A stretch of DNA of 64,000 nt from a virus. Its lineage: Duplodnaviria; Caudoviricetes. The notes under the pieces are model-generated. The model made no database searches. It was not told the DNA's origin and was given only the letters and a program-made list of their open reading frames with translations. Shown piece after piece: positions 3,433 to 41,500 of this stretch (positions are counted from its first letter, which is position 1; each line of letters begins with the position of its first letter). The DNA is taken from IMG/VR virus record IMGVR_UViG_3300020366_000001, positions 32,001-96,000 of that record, one strand, 5' to 3'. The position numbers and the translations under genes were made by a program.

Positions 3433-4100
3433 GGTTCAAGTGCGATGTAATAGGTCAGAGGAAGTTCAGAGTGATTCCACTCAGAGATCAGTCGCGAAGA
3501 AACACTGACTTTGTAGTCACCTTCGTAGACTCGCAGGTTTTCCACCTTAAAGTCCAGGGAGTATTCATCGTCGGCGTTACCAGACACCACTTGATCATAC
3601 TTGTTTGAGGTTTCGTCTTCCTTGTCTCGTACTTGAAGAGTGACATTATCTTGCTCACTAACAACAGTAAAGTCAGGCAAACCATAGACAGCGGCAGCTT
3701 TGGTAAGAGAGTAAAGACTGTCGTGAGTAACTTCAAAATTGATATTACCGCCAGGGAATTTGATGTCACGATCAGGTGCTGCCTTCATAGTAATCTCAGG
3801 ATCACTGAAGTAATACTTGACGCGACGACCACGATTAGAGTCACGGATAGTGACGTAGTTTGGATTATCGAAATGCAAAACAGGATTGTCGAAAAGACTC
3901 AGACCAGCAATGAACTGGTTGAGATCATAGATCGCAAAATCCTGAGGGAAACTCTCATCCACAGTAGCACGTGCAAAGATGTTCTCTGCATTACTGATAG
4001 TGCGAAGAGTGTTACCCGCTTTCACCACAATACTGGTGTTGATAGTAGCAAAGTTTTTCAGAATAGAAAGAGTTTGCTTGGAGAGGGTAACGACGTTCAT
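3429..4100 (-). CDS. gp45: Sliding clamp gp45
   Basis: LSKQTLSILKNFATIN...FAIYDLNQF...YYIALEP. Confidence 0.96.
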   Translation of the reverse strand: MNVVTLSKQTLSILKNFATINTSIVVKAGNTLRTISNAENIFARATVDESFPQDFAIYDLNQFIAGLSLFDNPVLHFDNPNYVTIRDSNRGRRVKYYFSDPEITMKAAPDRDIKFPGGNINFEVTHDSLYSLTKAAAVYGLPDFTVVSEQDNVTLQVRDKEDETSNKYDQVVSGNADDEYSLDFKVENLRVYEGDYKVSVSSRLISEWNHSELPLTYYIALEP

Positions 4101-4381
4101 TGAGGATATGTGTCAGGAGGAGTAGAATTTTTATCGTTGAAATGCATTAGCAACACAGCATAATGCAGGATTTTCATAATGTCTCGTCGGGCAGTTCCTT
4201 TCCTATCATATCGAGACGCATACTTAAGGATGTTACTACGGCAGAAAGACTCACCATCTCCACACGCTTCGATCAAATCAAGAGTTTGGATAGAGTCATC
4301 ACCTTGTGAGTAATGCTGACCATAGGTGCTAGTAATGTATTCTCGGAGTTCTCCAAGAATACGATCTTCACTGTACTTCAT
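4097..4381 (-). CDS. DUF3310-like protein (T7 gp1.7/SaV-like)
   Basis: HY...IQTLDLI...FCRSNILKYASRY.RKG..RRDIMKILHY pattern; start taken at MKYSED. Confidence 0.7.
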   Translation of the reverse strand: MKYSEDRILGELREYITSTYGQHYSQGDDSIQTLDLIEACGDGESFCRSNILKYASRYDRKGTARRDIMKILHYAVLLMHFNDKNSTPPDTYPQ

Positions 4382-15627: not shown

Positions 15628-17067
15628 TCACATAAGGTTGCGAACCAGGACGCGACGATAGTACTGGTTGCGACCCAGACCGTTGGCACCCAGCAGATCT
15701 TCGCCCACAGCAGAACCATCTGCTTTGAACACGAAGGGGTTGGCGACCATACCGTAGCGGGTCTTGAAGCCGATCTTCGGCTGGAAGGAACCCTGATCCA
15801 CGGCGCGGACCATTTGCAGGGGCACGTAGGGGCAATAGAAGAGACCAGCGTCATAGGCGCTAGTGCCCTTATAACCAGCAACGTAGTAGTGGTCGTCAGA
15901 CAGGTTAGCGGAATAAGGATCCACATAGACCTTGACGCCACCGTTGAGAGTACCAACGAAGGTGTTGCCAGTGTCATCGGGCAGACCGTTGGTGCTCAGG
16001 GCGGGGGTGTAATCAAGCACACCAGCCATATTCAGAGCGGAAGCAACATCAGCAGAGCAGAGGATGAAGTTGCCCTTCCCTCTACGAGTTTGCTGTGCAA
16101 TAGCGTTGGCGTCACGCTCGATCTGATAGATCAGACCTTTGAACTTCTCAACACTCCAGCGACCGTTAGAGTCGGTGTCAAGGTTGAAGATGCCAGCGTT
16201 AGCAACGTTGTTCTGAGCACCGACCTTTGCTTGGAGATACACAGTACGGATCACTTCGCGGTTGATTTCAGCGAGGATCTCCGAAGACAGGATGTTGGAG
16301 AGTTCAGTCTCAGCATCCAGACCGTGGATCGCCTTGAGGTCTTGTGCCAGTTCCAAGGTGTACTCAGCTTTCAGAGCACGGGACTTGGCAGTGACCGACA
16401 CCTTGTCGATCGAGAATGCCATCTCGCGGAAGTCAGGAGATCCAGCAGATCCCAGTGCTTCCAGGTAGTCACGAGCAGAACCTTGGGTGTTCTCGTAACG
16501 GAAGTTACCAGAGGCATACGTGGTGCTATCGTTGAGGATAGCGGGGTTGTTACCTTCAGCAGTGTTGGTAGCAGCTGCAGCAGAGCCACTTCCATCGCCA
16601 CCACCACCTTCGCCAACGTGACCAGCGAGGGGGTTGTAGGCAGCACCACCAGAAGCATCGCCCACGGCAGAGAAACCAGGGTTAGGCTCGTTGAACAGTG
16701 CTTCTGCGCCGTCGCGATCGTTGTAGTGCGACTTCATTGCGAAGATCAGTCCAGTAGGACCGCTCATCGGTTGCACACCACACACGTCATAAGCGACGAG
16801 GTTAGGCATAGAACGACGGATCAGGCTGATCAGGATCGGGTCGAAACCAGCGAGACCAGAAGAACCGTGGGAAGATTTAAGACCGTCTGCACCAACGCTG
16901 TTGATGGGGGCGGCTTCGTTAAGCATTGAATGCTCTTCTTTCAGAGCACGCTCTTGGTTTTCAAGGAGTTGAGCGGTAACCTGCTTACGGTGTGAATCCT
17001 TAATCTCGGAGAGATCACCGTGATTCAGAACAGGTGCCCACTTCTCCTGCAGTTGACGGGTGTCCAT
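15628..17067 (-). CDS. gp23: Major capsid protein gp23
   Basis: LISLIRRSMPNL, GVQPMSGPTGLIFAM, KSRALKAEYT.ELAQDLKAIHGLDAE, FQPKIGFKTRYG. Confidence 0.99.
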   Translation of the reverse strand: MDTRQLQEKWAPVLNHGDLSEIKDSHRKQVTAQLLENQERALKEEHSMLNEAAPINSVGADGLKSSHGSSGLAGFDPILISLIRRSMPNLVAYDVCGVQPMSGPTGLIFAMKSHYNDRDGAEALFNEPNPGFSAVGDASGGAAYNPLAGHVGEGGGGDGSGSAAAATNTAEGNNPAILNDSTTYASGNFRYENTQGSARDYLEALGSAGSPDFREMAFSIDKVSVTAKSRALKAEYTLELAQDLKAIHGLDAETELSNILSSEILAEINREVIRTVYLQAKVGAQNNVANAGIFNLDTDSNGRWSVEKFKGLIYQIERDANAIAQQTRRGKGNFILCSADVASALNMAGVLDYTPALSTNGLPDDTGNTFVGTLNGGVKVYVDPYSANLSDDHYYVAGYKGTSAYDAGLFYCPYVPLQMVRAVDQGSFQPKIGFKTRYGMVANPFVFKADGSAVGEDLLGANGLGRNQYYRRVLVRNLM

Positions 17068-21371: not shown

Positions 21372-23552
21372 TCATCTGCCGATGATTTCATCGAACGAAA
21401 CACCAGTGCGGGTAGCAACGAAGGTGATCGTGATGAAGTTAATCGAGCGAGAAGGCTTCAGATAGATCTCAGCAACGAATTCGTTACGGTCGATCACATC
21501 GCCAGTGTTGTTGGTCTCATCGCAGACCACCAGATAATCGGTGACGCCGCGACGTGCTTGGACTTCGCGGAGATAACCACCAACAGCACCAGAGAAACTG
21601 GAGCGAGTGATTTCGTCGTTCAGATCGAACAGCACGTTCTTAGCGAATGCTTCGATTTGCTTCTCCACCACCAGGAACAGGCGACGAACGTTGATACGGT
21701 CGAAGGAAGAAGGAGTGCTGAGTGCGGTCTTGTCACCAAACAGGACGGTGCCGCGACCAGGGAACGTGGAGATAGGATTCACACGTGCCTGATACAACTT
21801 ATCGCGATCAGACTTAGCAGGAGTGTAAGCAAGTTTGATCACGTTACGAATGACGCCACGGTTGAATCCAGCAGGAGAGAACCAGGGGTCAATGTTGCGA
21901 GCAGTTTCAACACACAGACCAGCAACGTCGCCATTGCAAGGCACGTAGCGATAAGTGTCATTGAAGCGATCGTAGATGTACTTCCAACCGCTATCAAACA
22001 CAGCGTAAGAAGTAGAAGAACCAACGCCATCGAAGAAGTCGATTACGTTGTCACGTTGGGCAGCAACGTTAGTAGCGAGAGTACCGAGAACTGCGCCTCT
22101 GTAAGGAGAGACGAACGCCATACAATCCTTACGTGCAGAAGCGATATTCACGCACTTCTGAGCAACGGTGATCGAATCAACGCGAGCAGCGAGGAGAGGA
22201 CCAGCAAGGATGAAGTCAAGACCGATGGACTCAGTATCAGCGAAGTAATCGTAACCAGCAGTCAGATCACCAGCATCAACAGCATAACCATCAACGCCAC
22301 CAGCCATTGTGTAGGACTGATAACCGAGCATCGTGTAGTTGCGTCCAGACTCGATACCAGATCCCCAGATTCCAGTGGTGTAACCACCATAGGAAGCAGT
22401 GGTGTTGGTGGAGTCGTGCTTACCCCAGTAGAGATAAGCAGAACCAAAGCGGAGAACGTTAGCGTAGTAGTTGTCAGCGCCTTCGGTAGTTTGTGCCAGA
22501 GCGGACTTAGACAGATTCTGGAACTTCTCCAGCATACTGTTCTTAGAACCAGTCAGTCTGCCAGTGGCATCCAGAACCACAATGCTCAGTTCGTCATACT
22601 TAGAACCGAAGTTGGCAGCGTAGGTAGAGGTGCCAGGGCGGGACACCAGGGTGTTCCAGTTGATGTCAGTGCCAGACAGTTTGACGTTATCCCACCACTT
22701 CGTAGCAGCGGAAGTATCGAAAGCAGTCAGTTCAGTGACAGCAGCGCCGTCAGCGTGAGCAGCAGCTGCAGTGCCCATTGCACCACGGGTGACTGCCAGT
22801 TGAGGTGCAGAACTAACATCGGTGACAAGAACGATCTCGCTGCCAATCAGCAGATAGTCGTTATCAGCAATGCCAGTGCCAGAAGCAACAGTGATGGTTG
22901 CATCGCCAGCAGCAACAGCACCGTTCAGAGTAGTAGCGGTGCCACCAGTCTGTGGAACGAGCAGGTTGCCAGTACCAACAGCAAAGTTGCCGTTGGTTTC
23001 AAAAACTTTGAGTGCAGCAGATCCTGCAGCAGCGGCAAACAACTTACCAGAAACACCGTTAGCGGTGTAGACGGTAGTGCCAGCAGCGGCAGTAACAGAA
23101 GCACCAGCGGTCAGATCGAAGTCGTAACCGTGGTCAACAACGTGAACGCTAATGTTGTTACCATAAGTACCAGCGCTCTTGGCAGCATAGTGCCAGTTTT
23201 GAGCACCATCGAAGTGGTTGGTAACGTACTCGCCATCGTTCTCGATGAGTTGAGCGGTAGCACTATCGGTAACTGCGTTAACCAGAGTGCTTGCGCCAAC
23301 ACGAACAACTTGCAGTTGTCCGCCATAAGAGAGGAAGTTTGTAGCGGTGAACCAGAACTCCGCATTATCTGCATTGGGAGCTCCAAAAGTCTCAAGGAGA
23401 CCTTTCTCGTTCAGAATGTTTGTAATTTCGTTTACTGGACCTCTTTCAAAAGGTCCAACAATTGCACCAACGTTGTCGATAGTACTATCGATACGTGCGT
23501 TGGTTAGGTCGCGTTCTTTAATAACAACGCCAGGTGATACTTGCCCTGCCAT
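21372..23552 (-). CDS. gp18: Tail sheath protein gp18
   Basis: SPGVVIKERDLT, PWFSPAGFNRG, FDRINVRRLF, KPSRSINFI; ATAAATA at 23593-23599. Confidence 0.98.
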   Translation of the reverse strand: MAGQVSPGVVIKERDLTNARIDSTIDNVGAIVGPFERGPVNEITNILNEKGLLETFGAPNADNAEFWFTATNFLSYGGQLQVVRVGASTLVNAVTDSATAQLIENDGEYVTNHFDGAQNWHYAAKSAGTYGNNISVHVVDHGYDFDLTAGASVTAAAGTTVYTANGVSGKLFAAAAGSAALKVFETNGNFAVGTGNLLVPQTGGTATTLNGAVAAGDATITVASGTGIADNDYLLIGSEIVLVTDVSSAPQLAVTRGAMGTAAAAHADGAAVTELTAFDTSAATKWWDNVKLSGTDINWNTLVSRPGTSTYAANFGSKYDELSIVVLDATGRLTGSKNSMLEKFQNLSKSALAQTTEGADNYYANVLRFGSAYLYWGKHDSTNTTASYGGYTTGIWGSGIESGRNYTMLGYQSYTMAGGVDGYAVDAGDLTAGYDYFADTESIGLDFILAGPLLAARVDSITVAQKCVNIASARKDCMAFVSPYRGAVLGTLATNVAAQRDNVIDFFDGVGSSTSYAVFDSGWKYIYDRFNDTYRYVPCNGDVAGLCVETARNIDPWFSPAGFNRGVIRNVIKLAYTPAKSDRDKLYQARVNPISTFPGRGTVLFGDKTALSTPSSFDRINVRRLFLVVEKQIEAFAKNVLFDLNDEITRSSFSGAVGGYLREVQARRGVTDYLVVCDETNNTGDVIDRNEFVAEIYLKPSRSINFITITFVATRTGVSFDEIIGR

Positions 23553-30944: not shown

Positions 30945-30987
30945 ATTTATACTCTAATGTCTTCTTTCATTATTTATACCCTAAATA
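30944..30987. promoter_or_regulatory. Divergent late promoters
   Basis: Minus-strand TATAAATA at 30944-30951 and 30971-30978; plus-strand CTAAATA at 30981-30987. Confidence 0.7.
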
Positions 30988-31011
30988 TATTGAGGGTACA
31001 TCTCTATAAAA

Positions 31012-31506
31012 ATGAACAGACCACTATTATTGTTGGGAGTACTTACGTTAATCGCTGCTCCTGCACGCGCCGATATAACTCATAGACTCTCCTCAAGTGT
31101 GCAGTTAAGAGTAGATGCTGCGGCAACCGTAGCAGATCGAATTGGTTCAACCTTCAGTATTTCTGGTACAAATATTGATACTACGGACGGTAGTACTGCA
31201 AACACAGTTTCTGCTGGTACTATTACCTCTGGTGTATATTCTCCAGGAACTATTGCAGCAACCCAAGACACTCCAGGGGCTGCATTTTCTTTCCAACAGT
31301 CTTATACTCAGGCTGATGCAGTACCGACTTCTGCTGTAAGTATTGGTGGTGTTCCGAATTTCGGTTCAATTACGAGTACTGCAGCTGGCACCGCTGGCGA
31401 CCTAGCTGGAACAATTACCAGCGCTGGTTTAACTACCGTGACCGCAGGTGGAGCTGGTACTACTGCTACGGGACAATTTGTTTCGGAGATTACTGTAGGC
31501 AATTGA
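31012..31506 (+). CDS. Exported Thr/Ser/Gly/Ala-rich beta protein
   Basis: Sec signal MNRPLLLLGVLTLIAAPARA|DITH... Confidence 0.85.
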   Translation: MNRPLLLLGVLTLIAAPARADITHRLSSSVQLRVDAAATVADRIGSTFSISGTNIDTTDGSTANTVSAGTITSGVYSPGTIAATQDTPGAAFSFQQSYTQADAVPTSAVSIGGVPNFGSITSTAAGTAGDLAGTITSAGLTTVTAGGAGTTATGQFVSEITVGN

Positions 31507-31515
31507 TGCAAAAAG

Positions 31516-31998
31516 GTGATCGTGATGAAAAAGATATCTTCGATCTCTTTGTTTGCACTGTGTGTGGTGGGTGTATTTGTCACACCTGCAAGTGTGCAGG
31601 CGGTCCCCGTGGTCCCAAACTTCACACAGGGCTCAATGACGAGCCACACGGAGACAACCTCCAAAGTGACTGAAACGATTAACTCTATAGATTATTCAAC
31701 AGGATGGGAATACAGTGTAAGCGGAGTGAACATCACAAACGATGGTCAAAGATTAAATCCTCCAAGTACAACTTCAAGCGTGATTGTCAATCCGATGGGC
31801 GGTGTAGAAGGACAAGTGACTTCATCCGCCGCTGCGTTGGACTTCAGCAACACAAACAACTTCAAAATAGCAACTCCAGGGGAAGCGTTCCAGTTCACAC
31901 AACACTACCGTGGACCAGGAGTAACGAACCAAACTGTTATTCAAAGGATAACGGAAGTTACAAGCGTAACCGACACCACAAGTATCTTTACCCAATAG
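31516..31998 (+). CDS. Exported Thr/Ser-rich beta protein
   Basis: Signal MKKISSISLFALCVVGVFVTPASVQA|VPVVPNF; ATG alternative at 31525. Confidence 0.85.
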   Translation: MIVMKKISSISLFALCVVGVFVTPASVQAVPVVPNFTQGSMTSHTETTSKVTETINSIDYSTGWEYSVSGVNITNDGQRLNPPSTTSSVIVNPMGGVEGQVTSSAAALDFSNTNNFKIATPGEAFQFTQHYRGPGVTNQTVIQRITEVTSVTDTTSIFTQ

Positions 31999-32999
31999 CA
32001 CTATGTCTAACTCAACTTGCGATTGCCCCTGCCACTCTGGCGGCAGATGTGGGGGGTGTAAGTGCAACAGCTAATCCAATCGCGAATAGCTCTGGCTCAG
32101 TGACCAACCAAGCCATTCAGGTTTTGCAAGGTCCGTATATCACTAACACATATGGGGGTGGAATTAGTTGTCAAGGACCAACTATGAATTTCACCCCATA
32201 CATTACTCACTCGCAGAGTAATAAAGATCCGTTTGAACAAAGATATTTTGAACCTCAATACGACAACAGAGATTTTGAAGGTCGAACTGTTGAGGTGCAG
32301 AAAGTTGTAAAGAACTGGCCTTGGGAAGAGTGGTACGACAATAGAACTTATACTGACGCAGAGGGTAATGAAGTTCGTGCATATGAAGATGGTGCAGATA
32401 TGCCCATTACTATTATGGAAGTTCAACCCGATGGAGTTCCCGACAATCCTGGCTCAGTGTTATGGGATAAACCAGTAAGAACTGGTGAGAAAATTAACTA
32501 TAGTACCAACATAGGTTTATCTGCTACGTTATCACTACCTCTCGATGGAGGATTGCAAGAACGTTGTAAGGCAGCAGCAGATACACACAATCAACTACAA
32601 ACTCAACTTGTCGCTAATAAGCGATTAGATTTTGAGATTGCGAGACTAAAAAATTGTGGCGAGTTAAAGAAAGCTGGAATATATTTTAGACCAGGAACAA
32701 AATATGCTGTTATTTGTTCTGATGTAATTGTCACAAATCCAGGCGGTGTAATCCCACCACATCGTCATTCTATCCCTTCGGTTTCAGTGCCGAACGCAAC
32801 TTCTTTATCGCCTGATTCCGATCACGCTGCTCAGCAACCCGCTCCCGCAAGGACAATACCTGGGGCTTCTTACCCCGTAAGGCAGCAACCTTCTTCATCA
32901 CCTTCTTCACAGTCGGTTTCACCACTTTTAACAGAAGATCAGCAAGAGGTTTTGCGAGCAGTGCCGAGGTCGTTGCCACAACCGCAATGGCCGCGGTAG
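31995..32999 (+). CDS. Exported protein with an outer-membrane-efflux (TolC)-like beta-hairpin plus helix; start uncertain
   Basis: Signal-like IALCLTQLAIAPATLA|ADVGG; PTMNFTPY...IGLSATLSLPLDGG followed by a helix; four Cys. The frame is open from 31704. Confidence 0.75.
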   Translation: MALCLTQLAIAPATLAADVGGVSATANPIANSSGSVTNQAIQVLQGPYITNTYGGGISCQGPTMNFTPYITHSQSNKDPFEQRYFEPQYDNRDFEGRTVEVQKVVKNWPWEEWYDNRTYTDAEGNEVRAYEDGADMPITIMEVQPDGVPDNPGSVLWDKPVRTGEKINYSTNIGLSATLSLPLDGGLQERCKAAADTHNQLQTQLVANKRLDFEIARLKNCGELKKAGIYFRPGTKYAVICSDVIVTNPGGVIPPHRHSIPSVSVPNATSLSPDSDHAAQQPAPARTIPGASYPVRQQPSSSPSSQSVSPLLTEDQQEVLRAVPRSLPQPQWPR

Positions 33000-33525
33000 T
33001 CGTTACCGCTTCTGGAGCAGGTAGATATTTTTCAGTCCAAGGAATTTCTTCTGCGGGCGGTTCACCTACCTCCTCAACTATCTTTTCACAGACCTTCTTA
33101 GACTCGTTATATTTCTCATCGAGTCCACAAGAGGGTCTTTTTGGTATCTGGGGAGATGGTGCAGCAGGTGCTGATGTATCTTCTGGTGGTGGGGGAGAGA
33201 TCTTTGGTAGAGGAGGTTCCGTAGATTCAATGACTAATCGATTGGCATCGTAATCAATAGGATTGAAACTAGGAGTACCTGCATCACAAAAAGTACGAAC
33301 ACCATCTTTGTCTTCGTCCTTTAGTGTTTGGTTTTCATTACTATCAATATGTGCCTCAACGCAACCAGGGATATTGACAATAGGCACACCAACTCCCGAC
33401 ACGACTGGTGGTGCAACTGGTAGCATTGTGCTAGGAGGTGCAACTATCCATTCGGGCAAGACATTAACTTGAATATCTCTAATGTCGATATTCTTAATGC
33501 CAATGTCTATTTTTGGGATACTCAC
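32770..33525 (-). CDS. Pro-rich protein with a C-terminal membrane anchor and basic tail
   Basis: TTTAAIAVVATTSALLA then PLADLLLKVVKPTVKKVMKK; Cys pairs. Confidence 0.8.
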   Translation of the reverse strand: MSIPKIDIGIKNIDIRDIQVNVLPEWIVAPPSTMLPVAPPVVSGVGVPIVNIPGCVEAHIDSNENQTLKDEDKDGVRTFCDAGTPSFNPIDYDANRLVIESTEPPLPKISPPPPEDTSAPAAPSPQIPKRPSCGLDEKYNESKKVCEKIVEEVGEPPAEEIPWTEKYLPAPEAVTTTAAIAVVATTSALLAKPLADLLLKVVKPTVKKVMKKVAALRGKKPQVLSLRERVAEQRDRNQAIKKLRSALKPKG

Positions 33526-33767
33526 AGACCAGGAATGGCAGGCATTGAGGTGCTAACACCACCCGTAGCGCTAGGCATCTTAGGCATAGCACCACTGATC
33601 ATTCCAGGAAGAGCATCAGTAATAGCTTCAGTAACTGCCGCAGTTGCTTTTTCTCTTGCTGATTCAATCAGAGAATCCTTGTTAAGGTATAGGTAAGCAC
33701 TACCACCAACAACGGCAGCAGATACACCAAAAGACGCAATAGCAAGTATGTTGATAATTTTTTGCAT
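33522..33767 (-). CDS. Small protein with an N-terminal TM anchor
   Basis: MQKIINILAIASFGVSAAVVGGSAYLYL; CTAAATA at 33789-33795. Confidence 0.75.
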   Translation of the reverse strand: MQKIINILAIASFGVSAAVVGGSAYLYLNKDSLIESAREKATAAVTEAITDALPGMISGAMPKMPSATGGVSTSMPAIPGL

Positions 33768-33777
33768 TGTAAGTACT

Positions 33778-34290
33778 TCACTGTACTTTATTTAGTAGAA
33801 GGATTGCATTTTCCAGTTCTTCTTTATGATTCCACTCATCTTGTGCAACAGCAGCAATCTCTTTATCTTCTGGATGTGTCGCAAGATATTTAATATATGT
33901 CTCGAAAGCGTGCTCTTCTACTTTGACACTAACATCGTAAGCATTGCGAGGAGATACCCAATAATAAACCACGTTAACCCAATAGTAGATAAGGACGAGA
34001 TGCTTGGCAACAAAACGATCGATAAAATAAGCGTTGCCACCCCTACTTTCCATAAGTTCCAAATGTTCTGTTTCATTTAATGTCTGAGCAAAATGTTCTT
34101 TCATCAAATAGATATGTTCTGGTCCTCGCAATCCCAGAGATTCTCTGAGATGTAGTACACTCAAAAAAGCAAAATAGGGTGCCCGAGCAATTTCCTCAAG
34201 CACCCAAAAACGTTGTATTTCCCTGCCACGGTACAGAAAATCTAGTACCGCGACAGTCACGTTGAGAACGACCGTGTTAAGAGTCTTCAT
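33778..34290 (-). CDS. ptox: Plastoquinol terminal oxidase (PTOX)
   Basis: Di-iron motifs LEEIARAPYF, NETEHL, EEHAFETY, DEWNH. Confidence 0.93.
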   Translation of the reverse strand: MKTLNTVVLNVTVAVLDFLYRGREIQRFWVLEEIARAPYFAFLSVLHLRESLGLRGPEHIYLMKEHFAQTLNETEHLELMESRGGNAYFIDRFVAKHLVLIYYWVNVVYYWVSPRNAYDVSVKVEEHAFETYIKYLATHPEDKEIAAVAQDEWNHKEELENAILLLNKVQ

Positions 34291-34850: not shown

Positions 34851-35270
34851 TTATCCTTTCTTGTCCGTTGTCGGGGGTTGCAACACTAACGGTGCCTGTT
34901 CAATACGAATAGTTTGAGCAGGAGCTGTTGCCGCCGCCTTTTCAATCAGTCTCTCCATATCTGCTTTGGAGATAGAACCAGGAGGCATTTTCATAGTGCC
35001 ATCACCACTTTTTTTAGCCGTTTGAACCCCGAACGTAGCTAAAACCCCAGTAAACACGCTGGCTATGAAAGTTGGATCGATTTTCTGTTGTGGTAATCCA
35101 GGAATAGTAACATAGTTAAGAGTAAGAATTCCGCCACTCCAAACTAAAATACCTAATCTTACCAAGGTACTGAGAACCATTAACTGTTCATCAGCATCTT
35201 GTGCTTTTTCTTTTAATTTACCAAAGGGACCTTTAGGTTTGGTCTCTGGTTTCTTCTGTTCTTCCGTCAT
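34851..35270 (-). CDS. Two-TM membrane protein (holin-like topology)
   Basis: TM1 VRLGILVWSGGILTL, TM2 FIASVFTGVLATFGV, charged termini. Confidence 0.75.
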   Translation of the reverse strand: MTEEQKKPETKPKGPFGKLKEKAQDADEQLMVLSTLVRLGILVWSGGILTLNYVTIPGLPQQKIDPTFIASVFTGVLATFGVQTAKKSGDGTMKMPPGSISKADMERLIEKAAATAPAQTIRIEQAPLVLQPPTTDKKG

Positions 35271-35679
35271 TTTCTATCTCCGCATTTTTGAGCATTTTTG
35301 CAAGTTCTGCGGTACTTCCAACAAACATTGTGTTGTTCACAGTAGAGGGACCACGGGCATCTTTGCCCTCTTTCACTTCCTTGGTATCTTTCTGTAACTT
35401 CATCAACTTGTCAGTTGTGTCCGCTACGTTCTTAATCATTAAGGCAGCAACTTCATATGCTCTCGGATGATCCGAGGATGCCGCGACATCAAGAATACCG
35501 TTAAGTGCTTCCTGACCCTTTTCAATGAGAGAGTACAAATTGCCACGAGTATATTCGTAGTCCTTTGTTACATCCTCAGCCCTTTCGGGTTTTTTAGGTT
35601 CAACAGTCGCTTCAACAACATCAGCTTCCTCTTCGGGAAGATTTAACAGATCTTTCATATTATCTTCTAGTTTACTCAT
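35233..35679 (-). CDS. gp16: Terminase small subunit gp16
   Basis: DYEYTRGNLYSLIEKGQEA, HPRAYEV, FVGSTAEL. Confidence 0.95.
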   Translation of the reverse strand: MSKLEDNMKDLLNLPEEEADVVEATVEPKKPERAEDVTKDYEYTRGNLYSLIEKGQEALNGILDVAASSDHPRAYEVAALMIKNVADTTDKLMKLQKDTKEVKEGKDARGPSTVNNTMFVGSTAELAKMLKNAEIENDGRTEETRDQT

Positions 35680-38503: not shown

Positions 38504-41500
38504 TTATGCCTGAGACTCACTCCAGGAAATACGACCCGTGACGGTAAAGGGTGAGGAGTTGTTCACACCCGTAAGGTCCACAGGTTCGGCAACCACAGTC
38601 AGGAGGTCAGGTCCGTTCGGGAAGATACCGTCGCCACCAAGGATGGAGTTACCCATCTCAATGATAGAACTAATATCGTACGAGGTAGAACCAGTACCAC
38701 GCTTACCAGTGTTGTCGATCGAACCACCAGCAGCACGGAAGGAGAAGATCTCAAGACCGCCTGCGTAGGTGTCATCCACCGTGTGCTTGATCAACTGGGA
38801 CAGTGACGGAGGTGCCACATCCAAGTAAGTATCAGACGAGAGCGATGGGTTCAGGATCAGTTTGACCTCACACTCGTGCGTGTTCACAACGTCAAGAGAG
38901 TTGAGTTGCAACTGCATTCGGTTGATGATCTCACGTTCACCCAGTGAACCAGACAGGGAGGAGTCCACAGAAGGAGACAGGCGAATAGACACCAGCGGAA
39001 TCTGCGAAGGCACCGTGTTGTCCGTACCCGCGACTGCACCAACAGCGAAGGTGGTGGAGGAAGGAACAGACGGGTTACCAACATCACCGTAGATGATGTT
39101 ATATCCTCTGTTGTACTGGAAGGTAGTGTTGCCGTTAGCATCGATGTACTGGAAGTCAACCTCCAGGCGACCAGAAGAAACTCTGGAACGATAGATCGAG
39201 CGACCATCCACCCACCAACCGTTACCAACAGTTGCCTGATACACGGTAGTACCCTGTGTCAGTTTGCTAGCTTCACTAGTTGGGAAGTACGTTCTGATGT
39301 AGAAGCGCATATTACGTGACCAACCTTCACCGATCTGCCACTGAGACAGAACCGTGGAGTTCTGGTTGGTTTGTGCACTTTGCGCAACTTCGTTGGTGAA
39401 CTTAAGCAGGTTACCAGATGCAGTGAACAGGTACGCTTTATCACTGTCGAATCTACCATCAGTGATAACGGAAGTACCCCAGTGGAACAGGGACGGAATG
39501 AACGTCGGAATTCCAGTGTTCTCAATCTCATAACGTGCGGGCAAGTTACCAGATCTGAAGTATGCTTCCGTCAAGCGGTTGTTGTGCTTGAATTCGTGCA
39601 CGTACTTCACGTGACCGTTCTGATCCTTGAATCCGAAGCGGATCTTACCTGCACCATACCAGGAGTAGTCCATATACGCCATCTGGATCTTAGTAATATC
39701 CAGAATGAAACCAGAAGGACCAGACCCGTCACAGTTGTCGTGGTTCCAAGAACCCTGAGGTGCCTTGGTGTTGATCGTCTTCGTGAGGATGATGTTGGAA
39801 GCAGTGATACCCTTGTACTGCGGTTGGATAACCAGTTGGTTATCGTTGACCACGCGGATAACCTTGTGGGACTGACCACGGATAACAATGAAGTCACCGT
39901 CAGACAGCTGCGAGAGGAATGCGGTGTCATCACCCGTAACCACGTTGTTGTTTCTAGTCACAGACACGCGACCAGTCAACTGAGTGGTGGAGGAACGACG
40001 GACACAGTTCAGAACGGAACCATCGTACTCGAAGTACATACCATTCTGGAAGTCGTACATACCGCAGCGGACATTGGAGTTAACCCAGTTGAGTACGTGA
40101 TACCCGAGGAAACCACCTGCAGCAGATGCAGTAGGTGCATTATCGAGAAGGAACGTGAAGGTAAACTCGTTAACGACAGTGGCGACACTACAACCACCGT
40201 TGTAGGAATCGTCTGTAGCATCCACGAAGCGCAGGTTGGTGCCAACCTCAAGGTTGTGCGGCAGCTTCGTCTCGACGATAACGCGGTGATAGGTCGTACC
40301 ATCCACGTAAGGCGAGTAGTATGCGCGTACAGCGGGTTGTTTCGGACAGAAGTTGATAGCGAGTGAACACTGGATACCTTTACCTGACTGGTAACGGAAG
40401 TATCTACGTGTCTGTCTAACAATCTGACCGTCAGGAGACTTACTAGTACCGATCTCCATACCACCGTCAAACGGTCTGTGGAGGAAGAATCCATCTGGTC
40501 GCACGTAAATGGCGGTGTCGATGAAGTACTCGGTATTACCAGCAGAGTTGACAGCACCTGTCGTGAAGGTTGCTGGGTCCGCGAGAAGAAGTTCCGTATC
40601 GTCTTTAATTGCAGAGATGGTAGTCTCAACAACAGTAAACGTTGTAGCAGAGTTGTTATCGATATAACGGAAAGTATCGTTAACTTTGAAGAATCTGGTG
40701 AAGGTGGTATCGGTACCAGTCACGATTCTAGAACCAGACTGAGTAGCGATAGTACCGCCGCCCACGACCTGTCCATCCATATTGGTATGGATCAGTTTCT
40801 GCAGAGGAGTCTGCGAACCACCAGTAGTGAAGTTAACGAAAGTACCTGCAACTGCAAGTGCTGCAGTCTCAGCAAGTTGGATGTGATCTTGGTCAACCAC
40901 GATCACGAAGTAGTCGCGGTTATCAGTCAGACCACCGATGGTAGTACCACCAGCATCCTGATAGATGAGACGTTGACCAGTCTTCATAAAGTGATCTTGG
41001 ATATTCAACGTGTGGTTGGTAGTATCAACGTTACCGCCGCTACCAGTGTCACGTGCGTCGAAGGTCTTAGTCGTAGGAACGATCTGGAAAGGAACTTCAA
41101 CAACCAGTTGAGTATCAGACTTAACTTCGTTGACGTTGTATGCACCGTCAGTAGCACCGAACGCAGCAGTCTGGTTCTCAAACACTTGATTACCAGAACC
41201 AGCAGAAGTAACGTCAATAGCACTTCCAGGATAGCTGAAGGAAGCAGAGTTACCCAGAGCGAAACGATCGTTAGAAACGACCTTCACGTAGTACTGAGAG
41301 TTCGGAGTCAGGTTGCCAATTGCAGTACCTGCAGTGGTGTAGAACAGACGCTCACCATCAGACAGGTTATGGTTCTCATAGTAGAAGGAGTTACGTAAGG
41401 GGTTAGCAAACGTACCAGTCATACCATAGACACCACGTGCATCAATAAGGCGATATGGTGAAGAACCAGTGCTAGACTTAATTCTGAAGCGGTTATCATC

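Follow-up and report, generated by a model that had tools for sequence, protein, structure and literature searches.

What would a cyanophage do with the only plus-strand operon in a 64,000-nucleotide (nt) stretch of its genome, when the three proteins of that operon, P1, P2, and P3, appear to be directed to the host envelope and the last gene runs into a fourth, convergent gene, P4? The stretch, referred to here as the window, comprises positions 32,001 to 96,000 of IMG/VR record IMGVR_UViG_3300020366_000001, a complete 187-kb T4-like cyanomyovirus genome with terminal repeats. A first-pass annotation of the window had proposed that P3 is half of a TolC-type outer-membrane protein, and no homology to TolC was found. 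The best overall explanation, which we regard as an even call, is that the genes belong to a late, cyanophage-specific module, the equivalent of Syn9 gp161 to gp167, with envelope-directed products and lysis as the preferred function. The points that emerged from the analysis are an apparent P3 start codon embedded in P2, the paralogy of P1 and P2, the predicted self-association of P3, and a podovirus version of the module at what corresponds to the T7 holin position.

The cassette and its distribution among cyanophages

The cassette has the following features (aa, amino acids).

30981..30987, plus strand: late-promoter-like box CTAAATA, 25 nt 5' of the P1 start
31012-31506, plus strand: P1, 164 aa, putatively exported, rich in Thr, Ala, Gly, and Ser; phrog_564 (E=2.5e-68), Syn9 gp167 by synteny
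31525-31998, plus strand: P2, 157 aa, putatively exported DUF6322 protein; start at ATG, with GTG 31516 possible; homologue of Syn9 gp166
31704-32999, plus strand: P3 frame, overlapping P2 by 295 nt and P4 by 230 nt
31704..32045, plus strand: P3 leader, 114 aa, in the -1 frame of P2; an unconserved basic stretch and then a signal-like segment with A-x-A (~31962-32045)
32046..32790, plus strand: putative mature core of P3, with a beta region, a lineage-variable insertion, a predicted 42-residue helix, and four conserved Cys; phrog_848 (E=2e-126), homologue of Syn9 gp165
32791..32999, plus strand: Ser/Pro/Gln-rich C-terminal tail of P3, antisense to the 3' part of P4
32770-33525, minus strand: P4, 251 aa, Pro-rich, four conserved Cys; phrog_570 (E=7e-81), Syn9 gp164 (E=1.3e-82)

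The open reading frames (ORFs), motifs, and coordinates of the first-pass annotation agreed with ours on re-check. P1 and P2 are, as it had described them, small and rich in Thr, Ser, and Gly (as well as Val), and each has an N-terminal hydrophobic segment with an A-x-A site. The signal-peptidase-type sites read from the sequence are ARA followed by D in P1 and VQA followed by V in P2. P2 matches Pfam family PF19847 (DUF6322) with E=1.3e-35 and 122.4 bits, and also phrog_650; P1 reaches only 15.2 bits against PF19847, for which the cut-off is 30.6. Comparison of P1 with P2 by hhalign (95%, E=3e-8) indicates distant paralogy. P1 and P2 are paralogous small DUF6322 proteins, and from the patterns just described we infer that they are exported by the Sec pathway. 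Homologues of P1 carry the label 'OMP1 protein' in some records. The description of P4 as Pro-rich and C-terminally anchored also stood: it contains 12.7% Pro, and a highly conserved hydrophobic segment (residues ~173-199) is followed by a basic tail.

The mature N terminus and the C terminus of P2 are nearly invariant. Residues ~27-44 (window 31600-31650), VPVVPNF.QGSMTS.TET, are almost invariant across myoviruses and recognizable in podoviruses. The first ~18 residues of mature P2 are conserved above the rest of the protein and lie outside its dual-coding stretch. This conserved mature N terminus may be a binding or strand-donating end.

The CTAAATA box upstream of P1 is the sole plus-strand copy within the 64-kb window. 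The other plus-strand ORFs of at least 100 aa that were tested had no family support and overlapped supported minus-strand genes, in keeping with the earlier description of the cassette as the only plus-strand operon, behind a box of its own. Two long plus-strand ORFs, at 21558-23507 (649 aa) and 15814-16929 (371 aa), lie antisense inside the minus-strand genes at 21372-23552 and 15628-17067; they may be accidents of composition or, like the overlaps of P3, frames that selection keeps open. In 43 of 59 related loci, a [C/A]TAAATA box stands 25-39 nt (mostly 29-35) 5' of the P1 start. The reported cyanomyovirus late promoter is NATAAATA (PMC2984593), and the box upstream of P1 fits it. On the minus strand, a second late-like box stands ahead of the 81-aa gene and P4, so two late-type units appear to converge; no convincing terminator was found between them, at the meeting of P3 and P4. 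Late timing, like export and membrane topology, is read throughout from sequence patterns.

The neighbours of P4 that matter for the comparison with other phages, and the box just mentioned, are the following.

33522..33767, minus strand: 81-aa protein with an N-terminal hydrophobic segment; phrog_568 (E=3e-33), Syn9 gp162 (E=1e-20)
33789-33795, minus strand: second late-like box, preceding the 81-aa gene and P4
34851..35270, minus strand: DUF6450 protein, 139 aa, two hydrophobic stretches; PF20048 (E=1.4e-35), homologue of Syn9 gp161
35233-35679: small terminase gp16 (PF11053), adjoining the DUF6450 gene

The closest named relatives of the source phage, S-RIM12 and S-CAM22, share ~75% nucleotide identity across the cassette. 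In Syn9 the equivalents of P1, P2, P3, and the convergent P4 are gp167, gp166, gp165, and gp164, and upstream of P4 on the minus strand are the equivalents gp162 (81 aa) and gp161 (a protein with two transmembrane segments, 2-TM). Syn9 gp161 to gp167 are contiguous, unlike the module in the window. These Syn9 genes, together with DUF6322, DUF6450, and PHROGs 564, 650, 848, 570, 568, and 2714, are direct homologues or families of the window genes, and all are annotated as hypothetical or as DUF only. The co-occurrence of the four genes, which the first-pass annotation had made a check of its proposal, was borne out: the layout P1-P2-P3 with a convergent P4 is kept in ~80 metagenomic IMG/VR loci, and the genes recur in hundreds of cyanophage records. 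Phage records were matched by P3 (438), P2 (407), and P4 (357), and all were Synechococcus or Prochlorococcus phages or marine single-cell viral contigs. A scan of genome contigs for cellular homologues gave only cyanophage contigs binned into metagenome-assembled or single-amplified genomes.

The module is also present in podoviruses. In the T7-like phages S-RIP1 and S-TIP37, a cluster between the tail fibre and large terminase genes encodes a Pro-rich C-anchored protein, a DUF6450 2-TM protein, P2, and a P3 of full length whose start is embedded in the same way. The genes in S-RIP1 are, in order:

Gene 1: Pro-rich protein built like P4, ending in a Thr/Ala-rich hydrophobic segment and a basic tail
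Gene 2: 58-aa 2-TM protein, homologue of the DUF6450 protein of the window (E=2e-13)
Gene 3: P2
Gene 4: full-length P3
Gene 5: 77-aa N-anchored helical protein
Gene 6: small terminase (phrog_891), directly downstream of the cluster

P2, P3, and the 2-TM protein of S-RIP1 have supported homologues in the window, the last being 40% identical to the DUF6450 protein. By analogy with the T7 gene order, the cluster occupies the place of T7 gene 17.5, the holin gene. The deposited annotation of S-TIP37 (MH540083.1) omits the DUF6450 2-TM gene at record positions 39263-39415.

The DUF6450 protein, present in Syn9, S-RIP1, and S-TIP37, is absent from S-PM2, as are P2, P3, P4, and the 81-aa gene; the same searches recovered all of these in Syn9. 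Because S-PM2 misses all of them together, the module genes appear to move and to disappear as one block, and not every cyanomyovirus needs them. S-PM2 p163 to p165 were considered as family members and are unrelated small genes; the 'gp16x' names stem from Syn9. The genes of the module are probably a conserved, co-occurring, late-transcribed set of exported and membrane proteins.

The two overlaps of P3

The first-pass annotation treated P3 as an ordinary signal-led gene and overlooked a start codon embedded in P2. Its statement that all three plus-strand proteins have signal-like N termini holds for P1 and P2 and not for P3, whose signal-like segment (~31962-32045) is not at the N terminus. 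In P1, P2, and all P3 variants, the n-region, h-region, and A-x-A pattern read from the sequence conforms to Sec type I. There is no ATG, GTG, or TTG between ATG 31704 and GTG 32049, the latter lying behind the signal. Because no start codon stands directly before the signal-like segment, gene callers choose one or the other, and database gene models for P3 disagree between a long overlapping form and a truncated form without a signal.

ATG 31704 lies at the junction of the P2 codons GGA-TGG and is formed by the A of the Gly codon and the TG of a conserved Trp codon. All 60 loci with a near-complete P2 have 100-135 stop-free codons in its -1 frame, ending at the P2 stop, apart from S-CAM22, in which 61 codons are open. 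Synonymous-codon shuffles of P2 matched the observed open run in a median of 0.35% of trials. Stop density per codon in the -1 frame was 0.000 in the overlap versus 0.059 for the remainder of P2 and 0.07-0.10 across P1, P3, and P4, and the open stretch starts a few codons before the Gly-Trp ATG. The Gly codon is GGA in 46/46 loci that have the Trp, whereas the share of GGA among Gly codons there is just 34%. In S-CAM22 this site reads GGT-TAT and offers no ATG; stops lie upstream, and a later ATG is used. In the podoviruses S-RIP1 and S-TIP37 the same ATG is formed from TCA-TGG, and 196-202 nt are kept open. Distant relatives with a canonical ATGA overlap at the P2 stop and a plain MKK...AYA signal have only 25-52 nt open. 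Because such relatives with an ordinary ATGA-coupled start exist, the embedded start seems to replace the canonical one in other lineages. The conclusion drawn from these comparisons is that P3 translation would start at the embedded ATG 31704.

It is possible that P3 is instead made by -1 ribosomal frameshifting from P2, in whose -1 frame it lies, or from an AUA that overlaps the P2 stop, as ATA 31995-31997 is exactly where relatives place the ATG of the ATGA overlap. We consider both very improbable. At no column do more than 11 of the 47 loci carry an X_XXY_YYZ slippery heptamer, and the two best columns (47-48) are located before the overlap begins. A P2-P3 fusion, moreover, would leave the basic stretch and another hydrophobic segment downstream of an N terminus that is already exported. 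In the marine clade the ancestral start position reads ATA in 27 loci, GTA in 17, and GTG in 3, and because these codons vary there, no start-like codon is kept. An AUA start would also lose the basic n-region and would leave the selectively open 105-codon frame and the fixed GGA unexplained.

With its start at the ATG inside P2, P3 would carry a leader of ~114 aa. No amino-acid selection was seen on the leader, and synonymous-site identity was 0.468 in the P2 overlap versus 0.44-0.47 elsewhere. Selection for positive charge was considered and rejected: the net charge of the leader is +13.5 versus +10.2 in shuffles. Because that charge was exceeded in ~26% of shuffles, the basic character of the leader is mostly a by-product of the P2 sequence, and its first ~95 residues look like unconstrained filler. 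The signal-like site that follows is TLA before A or LAA before D. An A-x-A or its equivalent is kept in every P3 variant, which points to cleavage of the leader, and the hydrophobic segment, having a signal-peptidase site, is unlike a stable anchor.

The arrangement resembles phiX174 E within D, lambda Rz1 within Rz, and MS2 L in that a reading frame begins within a second gene and out of phase with it, stays open through selection acting on synonymous sites of the host gene, and carries little information of its own in the overlapped stretch. It differs in that only the P3 leader (~100 codons) is embedded, with the functional domain downstream in unshared DNA, and in that a conserved Gly-Trp pair of P2 supplies the start codon. 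Whatever the function of P3, the fixed GGA-TGG and the 105-codon open frame make the embedded start a clean case of synonymous-site selection.

Public gene models of the P3 family are often wrong, some being truncated behind the signal peptide and the podovirus ones cut to a third of the protein. In S-TIP37 (MH540083.1; positions 3572-4303 of locus L085) the P3 homologue is annotated from an internal Met, so that the signal peptide is lost along with half of the mature sequence. The annotation of the S-RIP1 homologue (L086, 3683-4324) is truncated in the same way.

At its other end, P3 overlaps P4 by 230 nt (32770-32999). Its length is 200-335 nt in most loci; some lineages have 17-32 nt or no overlap at all, and podovirus P3 ends without a tail. 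AlphaFold2 models the tail as disordered, at a predicted local distance difference test (pLDDT) score of ~50, and no amino-acid constraint on it was seen. Synonymous shuffles of P4 gave open antisense runs of only 10-20 codons, shorter than observed (median p 0.0015). Constraint at P4 synonymous sites was 0.461 inside the overlap versus 0.468 outside. Because constraint in the overlap is no higher than outside, P4 rather than the P3 tail appears to be the selected frame. The two late-type transcripts would be complementary across 32770-32999. A 23-codon Cys-rich ORF in the third frame (window 32003-32074), with its ATG just after the P2 stop, runs across the P3 signal region and is probably due to chance.

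The P3 core and the comparison with TolC

The P3 family comprises 425 cluster representatives at E<=0.001. Its alignments show the lineage-variable insertion, several conserved Gly and Pro residues, and, ahead of the helix, a P-L-D motif. Two of the Cys are invariant, a third is present in at least 90% of sequences, and the fourth lies within a CQGP motif. Searches of Pfam, NCBIfam, and PDB sequences found nothing for P3 or P4, and the BFVD matches of P3 were family members only ('Gp165' proteins).

The motifs that had been picked out earlier are where they were said to be: PTMNFTPYITHS begins at 32178 and NIGLSATLSLPLDGG occupies 32508-32552, and in the AlphaFold2 model the 42-residue helix comes directly after the second. 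This model, with a mean pLDDT of 71 and values of 80-96 over the core, consists of long strands and the single helix and is elongated and non-globular. Three copies of P3 residues 22-250 folded together gave an interface score (ipSAE) of 0.59, against 0.00 for the best of 3 controls. A score of 0.59 was reached by 20/30 proteins solved as one-chain pairs and by 1/23 solved as single chains, a calibration from which the P3 run differs in its custom alignment and its three copies. At least 81% of contacts agreed between the three-copy runs, with a partner pLDDT of at least 75. The interface consists of parallel helix packing (residues 173-207) and of strand 149-167 set against strand 44-63 of the next copy. 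P3 is thus predicted to self-associate, a result that does not extend to stoichiometry, a pore, or membrane insertion.

The first-pass annotation proposed that P3 is a single-repeat TolC-type outer-membrane channel, in which P1 and P2 would serve as cargo or as subunits of a filament and P4 would be the inner anchor. Parts of the likeness are real. P3 and TolC share a beta stretch that leads through a Pro/Gly turn into a long helix; in P3 the succession from beta strand through P-L-D-G-G to helix is present, together with two ~10-residue stretches of alternating hydrophobicity (~32178-32213 and ~32508-32540), and the three-copy fold pairs strands between copies and bundles the helices. However, neither P3 nor any of 54 relatives matched OEP (PF02321) in Pfam at E<=1. 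The profile comparison with TolC that had been suggested gave, for a 69-sequence P3 profile against E. coli TolC and CusC, an hhalign probability of 0.15% and E=0.4, a weak comparison because the TolC and CusC profile consists of two sequences only. Foldseek searches of the PDB with two P3 models reached a best E of 0.16, although the lack of a match does not rule a shared fold out. In VIA-align (wide) the top Z scores were 5.0 and 4.5, with matches that covered a single helix only, and no TolC family member was among the matches listed.

The architecture also differs. P3 is a single unit, and TolC has two repeats. With one parallel helix per chain, P3 helices would form a bundle, whereas the antiparallel helical hairpins of TolC build a hollow barrel. 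In the AlphaFold2 secondary structure the P3 beta region has no helix ahead of it, the long strands are largely polar or charged, the core is only ~140-250 residues, and its conserved Cys are of disulfide type. A relationship of P3 to TolC/OEP is not supported, and the channel proposal as a whole is extremely unlikely. What survives of it is the oligomer, in the form of predicted self-association with strand pairing between copies. P3 may have in common with TolC just the broad principle of an oligomer in which copies share strands and bundle their helices.

Candidate functions at the host envelope

T4-like and T7-like cyanophages are among the most abundant marine viruses. No paper was found that identifies their lysis genes; the literature consulted lists only which homologues are missing (PMC1079782, PMC2984593). 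Cyanopodoviruses lack T7 genes 3.5, 17.5, and 18.5 (PMC1079782), and cyanomyoviruses lack the T4 r genes (PMC2984593). Nothing was found in the literature on the module genes. A set of five to seven genes for putative exported and membrane proteins, found in two unrelated cyanophage families, located at the T7 holin position, and lost as a unit in S-PM2, provides a concrete and testable candidate for lysis.

Our best guess is an envelope role or outer-membrane breach. The products of the module would go to the host cytoplasmic membrane, the periplasm, and probably the outer membrane. The P3 signal peptide at the end of the leader would be cut at A-x-A, releasing a Cys-containing protein of ~250 aa with a beta region and a long helix, which would self-associate through parallel helices and strand pairing between copies. 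P4, Pro-rich, would be held in a membrane by its conserved C-terminal hydrophobic segment. Together with the 2-TM DUF6450 protein, the module would act on the envelope at the end of infection. In lysis, this might comprise a holin-like 2-TM protein and an outer-membrane-disrupting step by P3, with or without P4. The basis for a lysis role is position, composition, and the absence of known lysis genes, and we put its chance somewhat short of even. It is possible, although unlikely, that P3, perhaps with P4, is the outer-membrane disruptor of an unrecognized lysis system that replaces the holin and spanin genes which T4-like and T7-like cyanophages lack. In such a system, mature P3 would form a beta-sheet/coiled-coil oligomer with no solved counterpart, and its dosage or timing would be set by the hidden start codon.

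Several findings weigh against a lysis module. No experiment and no homology links any member to lysis, and neither a muralytic enzyme nor a lipoprotein signal of the o-spanin type was found in the module. The polar long strands of P3 argue against a classical membrane barrel. P4 has an odd topology for a periplasm-spanning protein because its 170-aa N-terminal part must cross the membrane without a signal. The proposed homology between P4 and the Pro-rich protein of the podoviruses is unproven (BLASTP E=0.5), the likeness being one of architecture only, and the 81-aa protein of the window has no similarity to the 77-aa protein of S-RIP1. The module is also not universally required, because S-PM2 lyses its host without these genes.

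Compared with two-component spanins (lambda Rz/Rz1, T7 gp18.5/18.7, T4 PseT.3/PseT.2), the module shows both likenesses and differences. The likeness lies in small, late, envelope-directed proteins, one helical with Cys and one Pro-rich, to which the module adds a small 2-TM protein; the genes overlap, as spanin genes do, and in podoviruses the cluster is directly upstream of the small terminase gene, the place of the T7 holin gene 17.5. However, there is no homology and no lipoprotein box in the module. P4 is C-terminally anchored and is not an outer-membrane lipoprotein, and P3 is apparently freed by signal peptidase rather than anchored. In myoviruses P3 and P4 overlap antisense and P2 and P3 out of frame, and the DUF6322 proteins are extra, without a spanin counterpart. 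The marks of a two-component spanin, an o-spanin lipoprotein box and an i-spanin with an N-terminal TM segment and a periplasmic coiled coil, are likewise missing: the only Cys in the signal segments of P2 and P3 (FALC, IALC) is preceded by Leu, where a lipoprotein box needs Gly, Ala, or Ser, Cys is absent from P1, and P4 lacks a signal at its N terminus.

The evidence on export, membrane segments, and co-occurrence would equally suit a module that alters the envelope for a purpose other than lysis, such as superinfection exclusion, masking of receptors against progeny loss on debris, or stabilization of the envelope until release. Dispensability in S-PM2 is what is often seen for accessory host-interaction genes, and confinement to cyanophages of two unrelated families fits a trick specific to the host envelope. 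However, exclusion functions, which T4 expresses early, are a poor fit with late-promoter boxes. No similarity to known exclusion proteins was found in Pfam, PHROGs, and NCBIfam, beyond which no specific search was made, and the T7 holin position in podoviruses points to lysis. We consider a non-lysis envelope role possible and, on balance, unlikely.

Late promoters, adjacency of the cluster to terminase genes in the window and in podoviruses, and the predicted elongated, helix-rich, self-associating form of P3 would also be expected of virion or ejection proteins that are packaged to cross the envelope at the next infection, like T7 gp14-16. Cyanopodoviruses, moreover, lack T7 genes 6.7, 13, and 14 (PMC1079782). 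Such a role is nonetheless very unlikely. P1, P2, and P3 have putative classical cleavable Sec signals, with plain MKK...AYA forms in relatives, and the conserved Cys pairs are typical of periplasmic proteins, whereas virion assembly in tailed phages is cytoplasmic. S-PM2 makes infectious virions without the module genes.

An envelope-directed late module, with lysis preferred, is therefore the reading retained here. Among the remaining genes of the module, the 81-aa gene is translationally coupled to P4, and its Syn9 counterpart gp162 is annotated 'plasmid stability'. A plastoquinol terminal oxidase gene (AOX family, E=6e-13) at 33778-34290 lies inside the module, between the genes for a 189-aa protein and the 81-aa protein.

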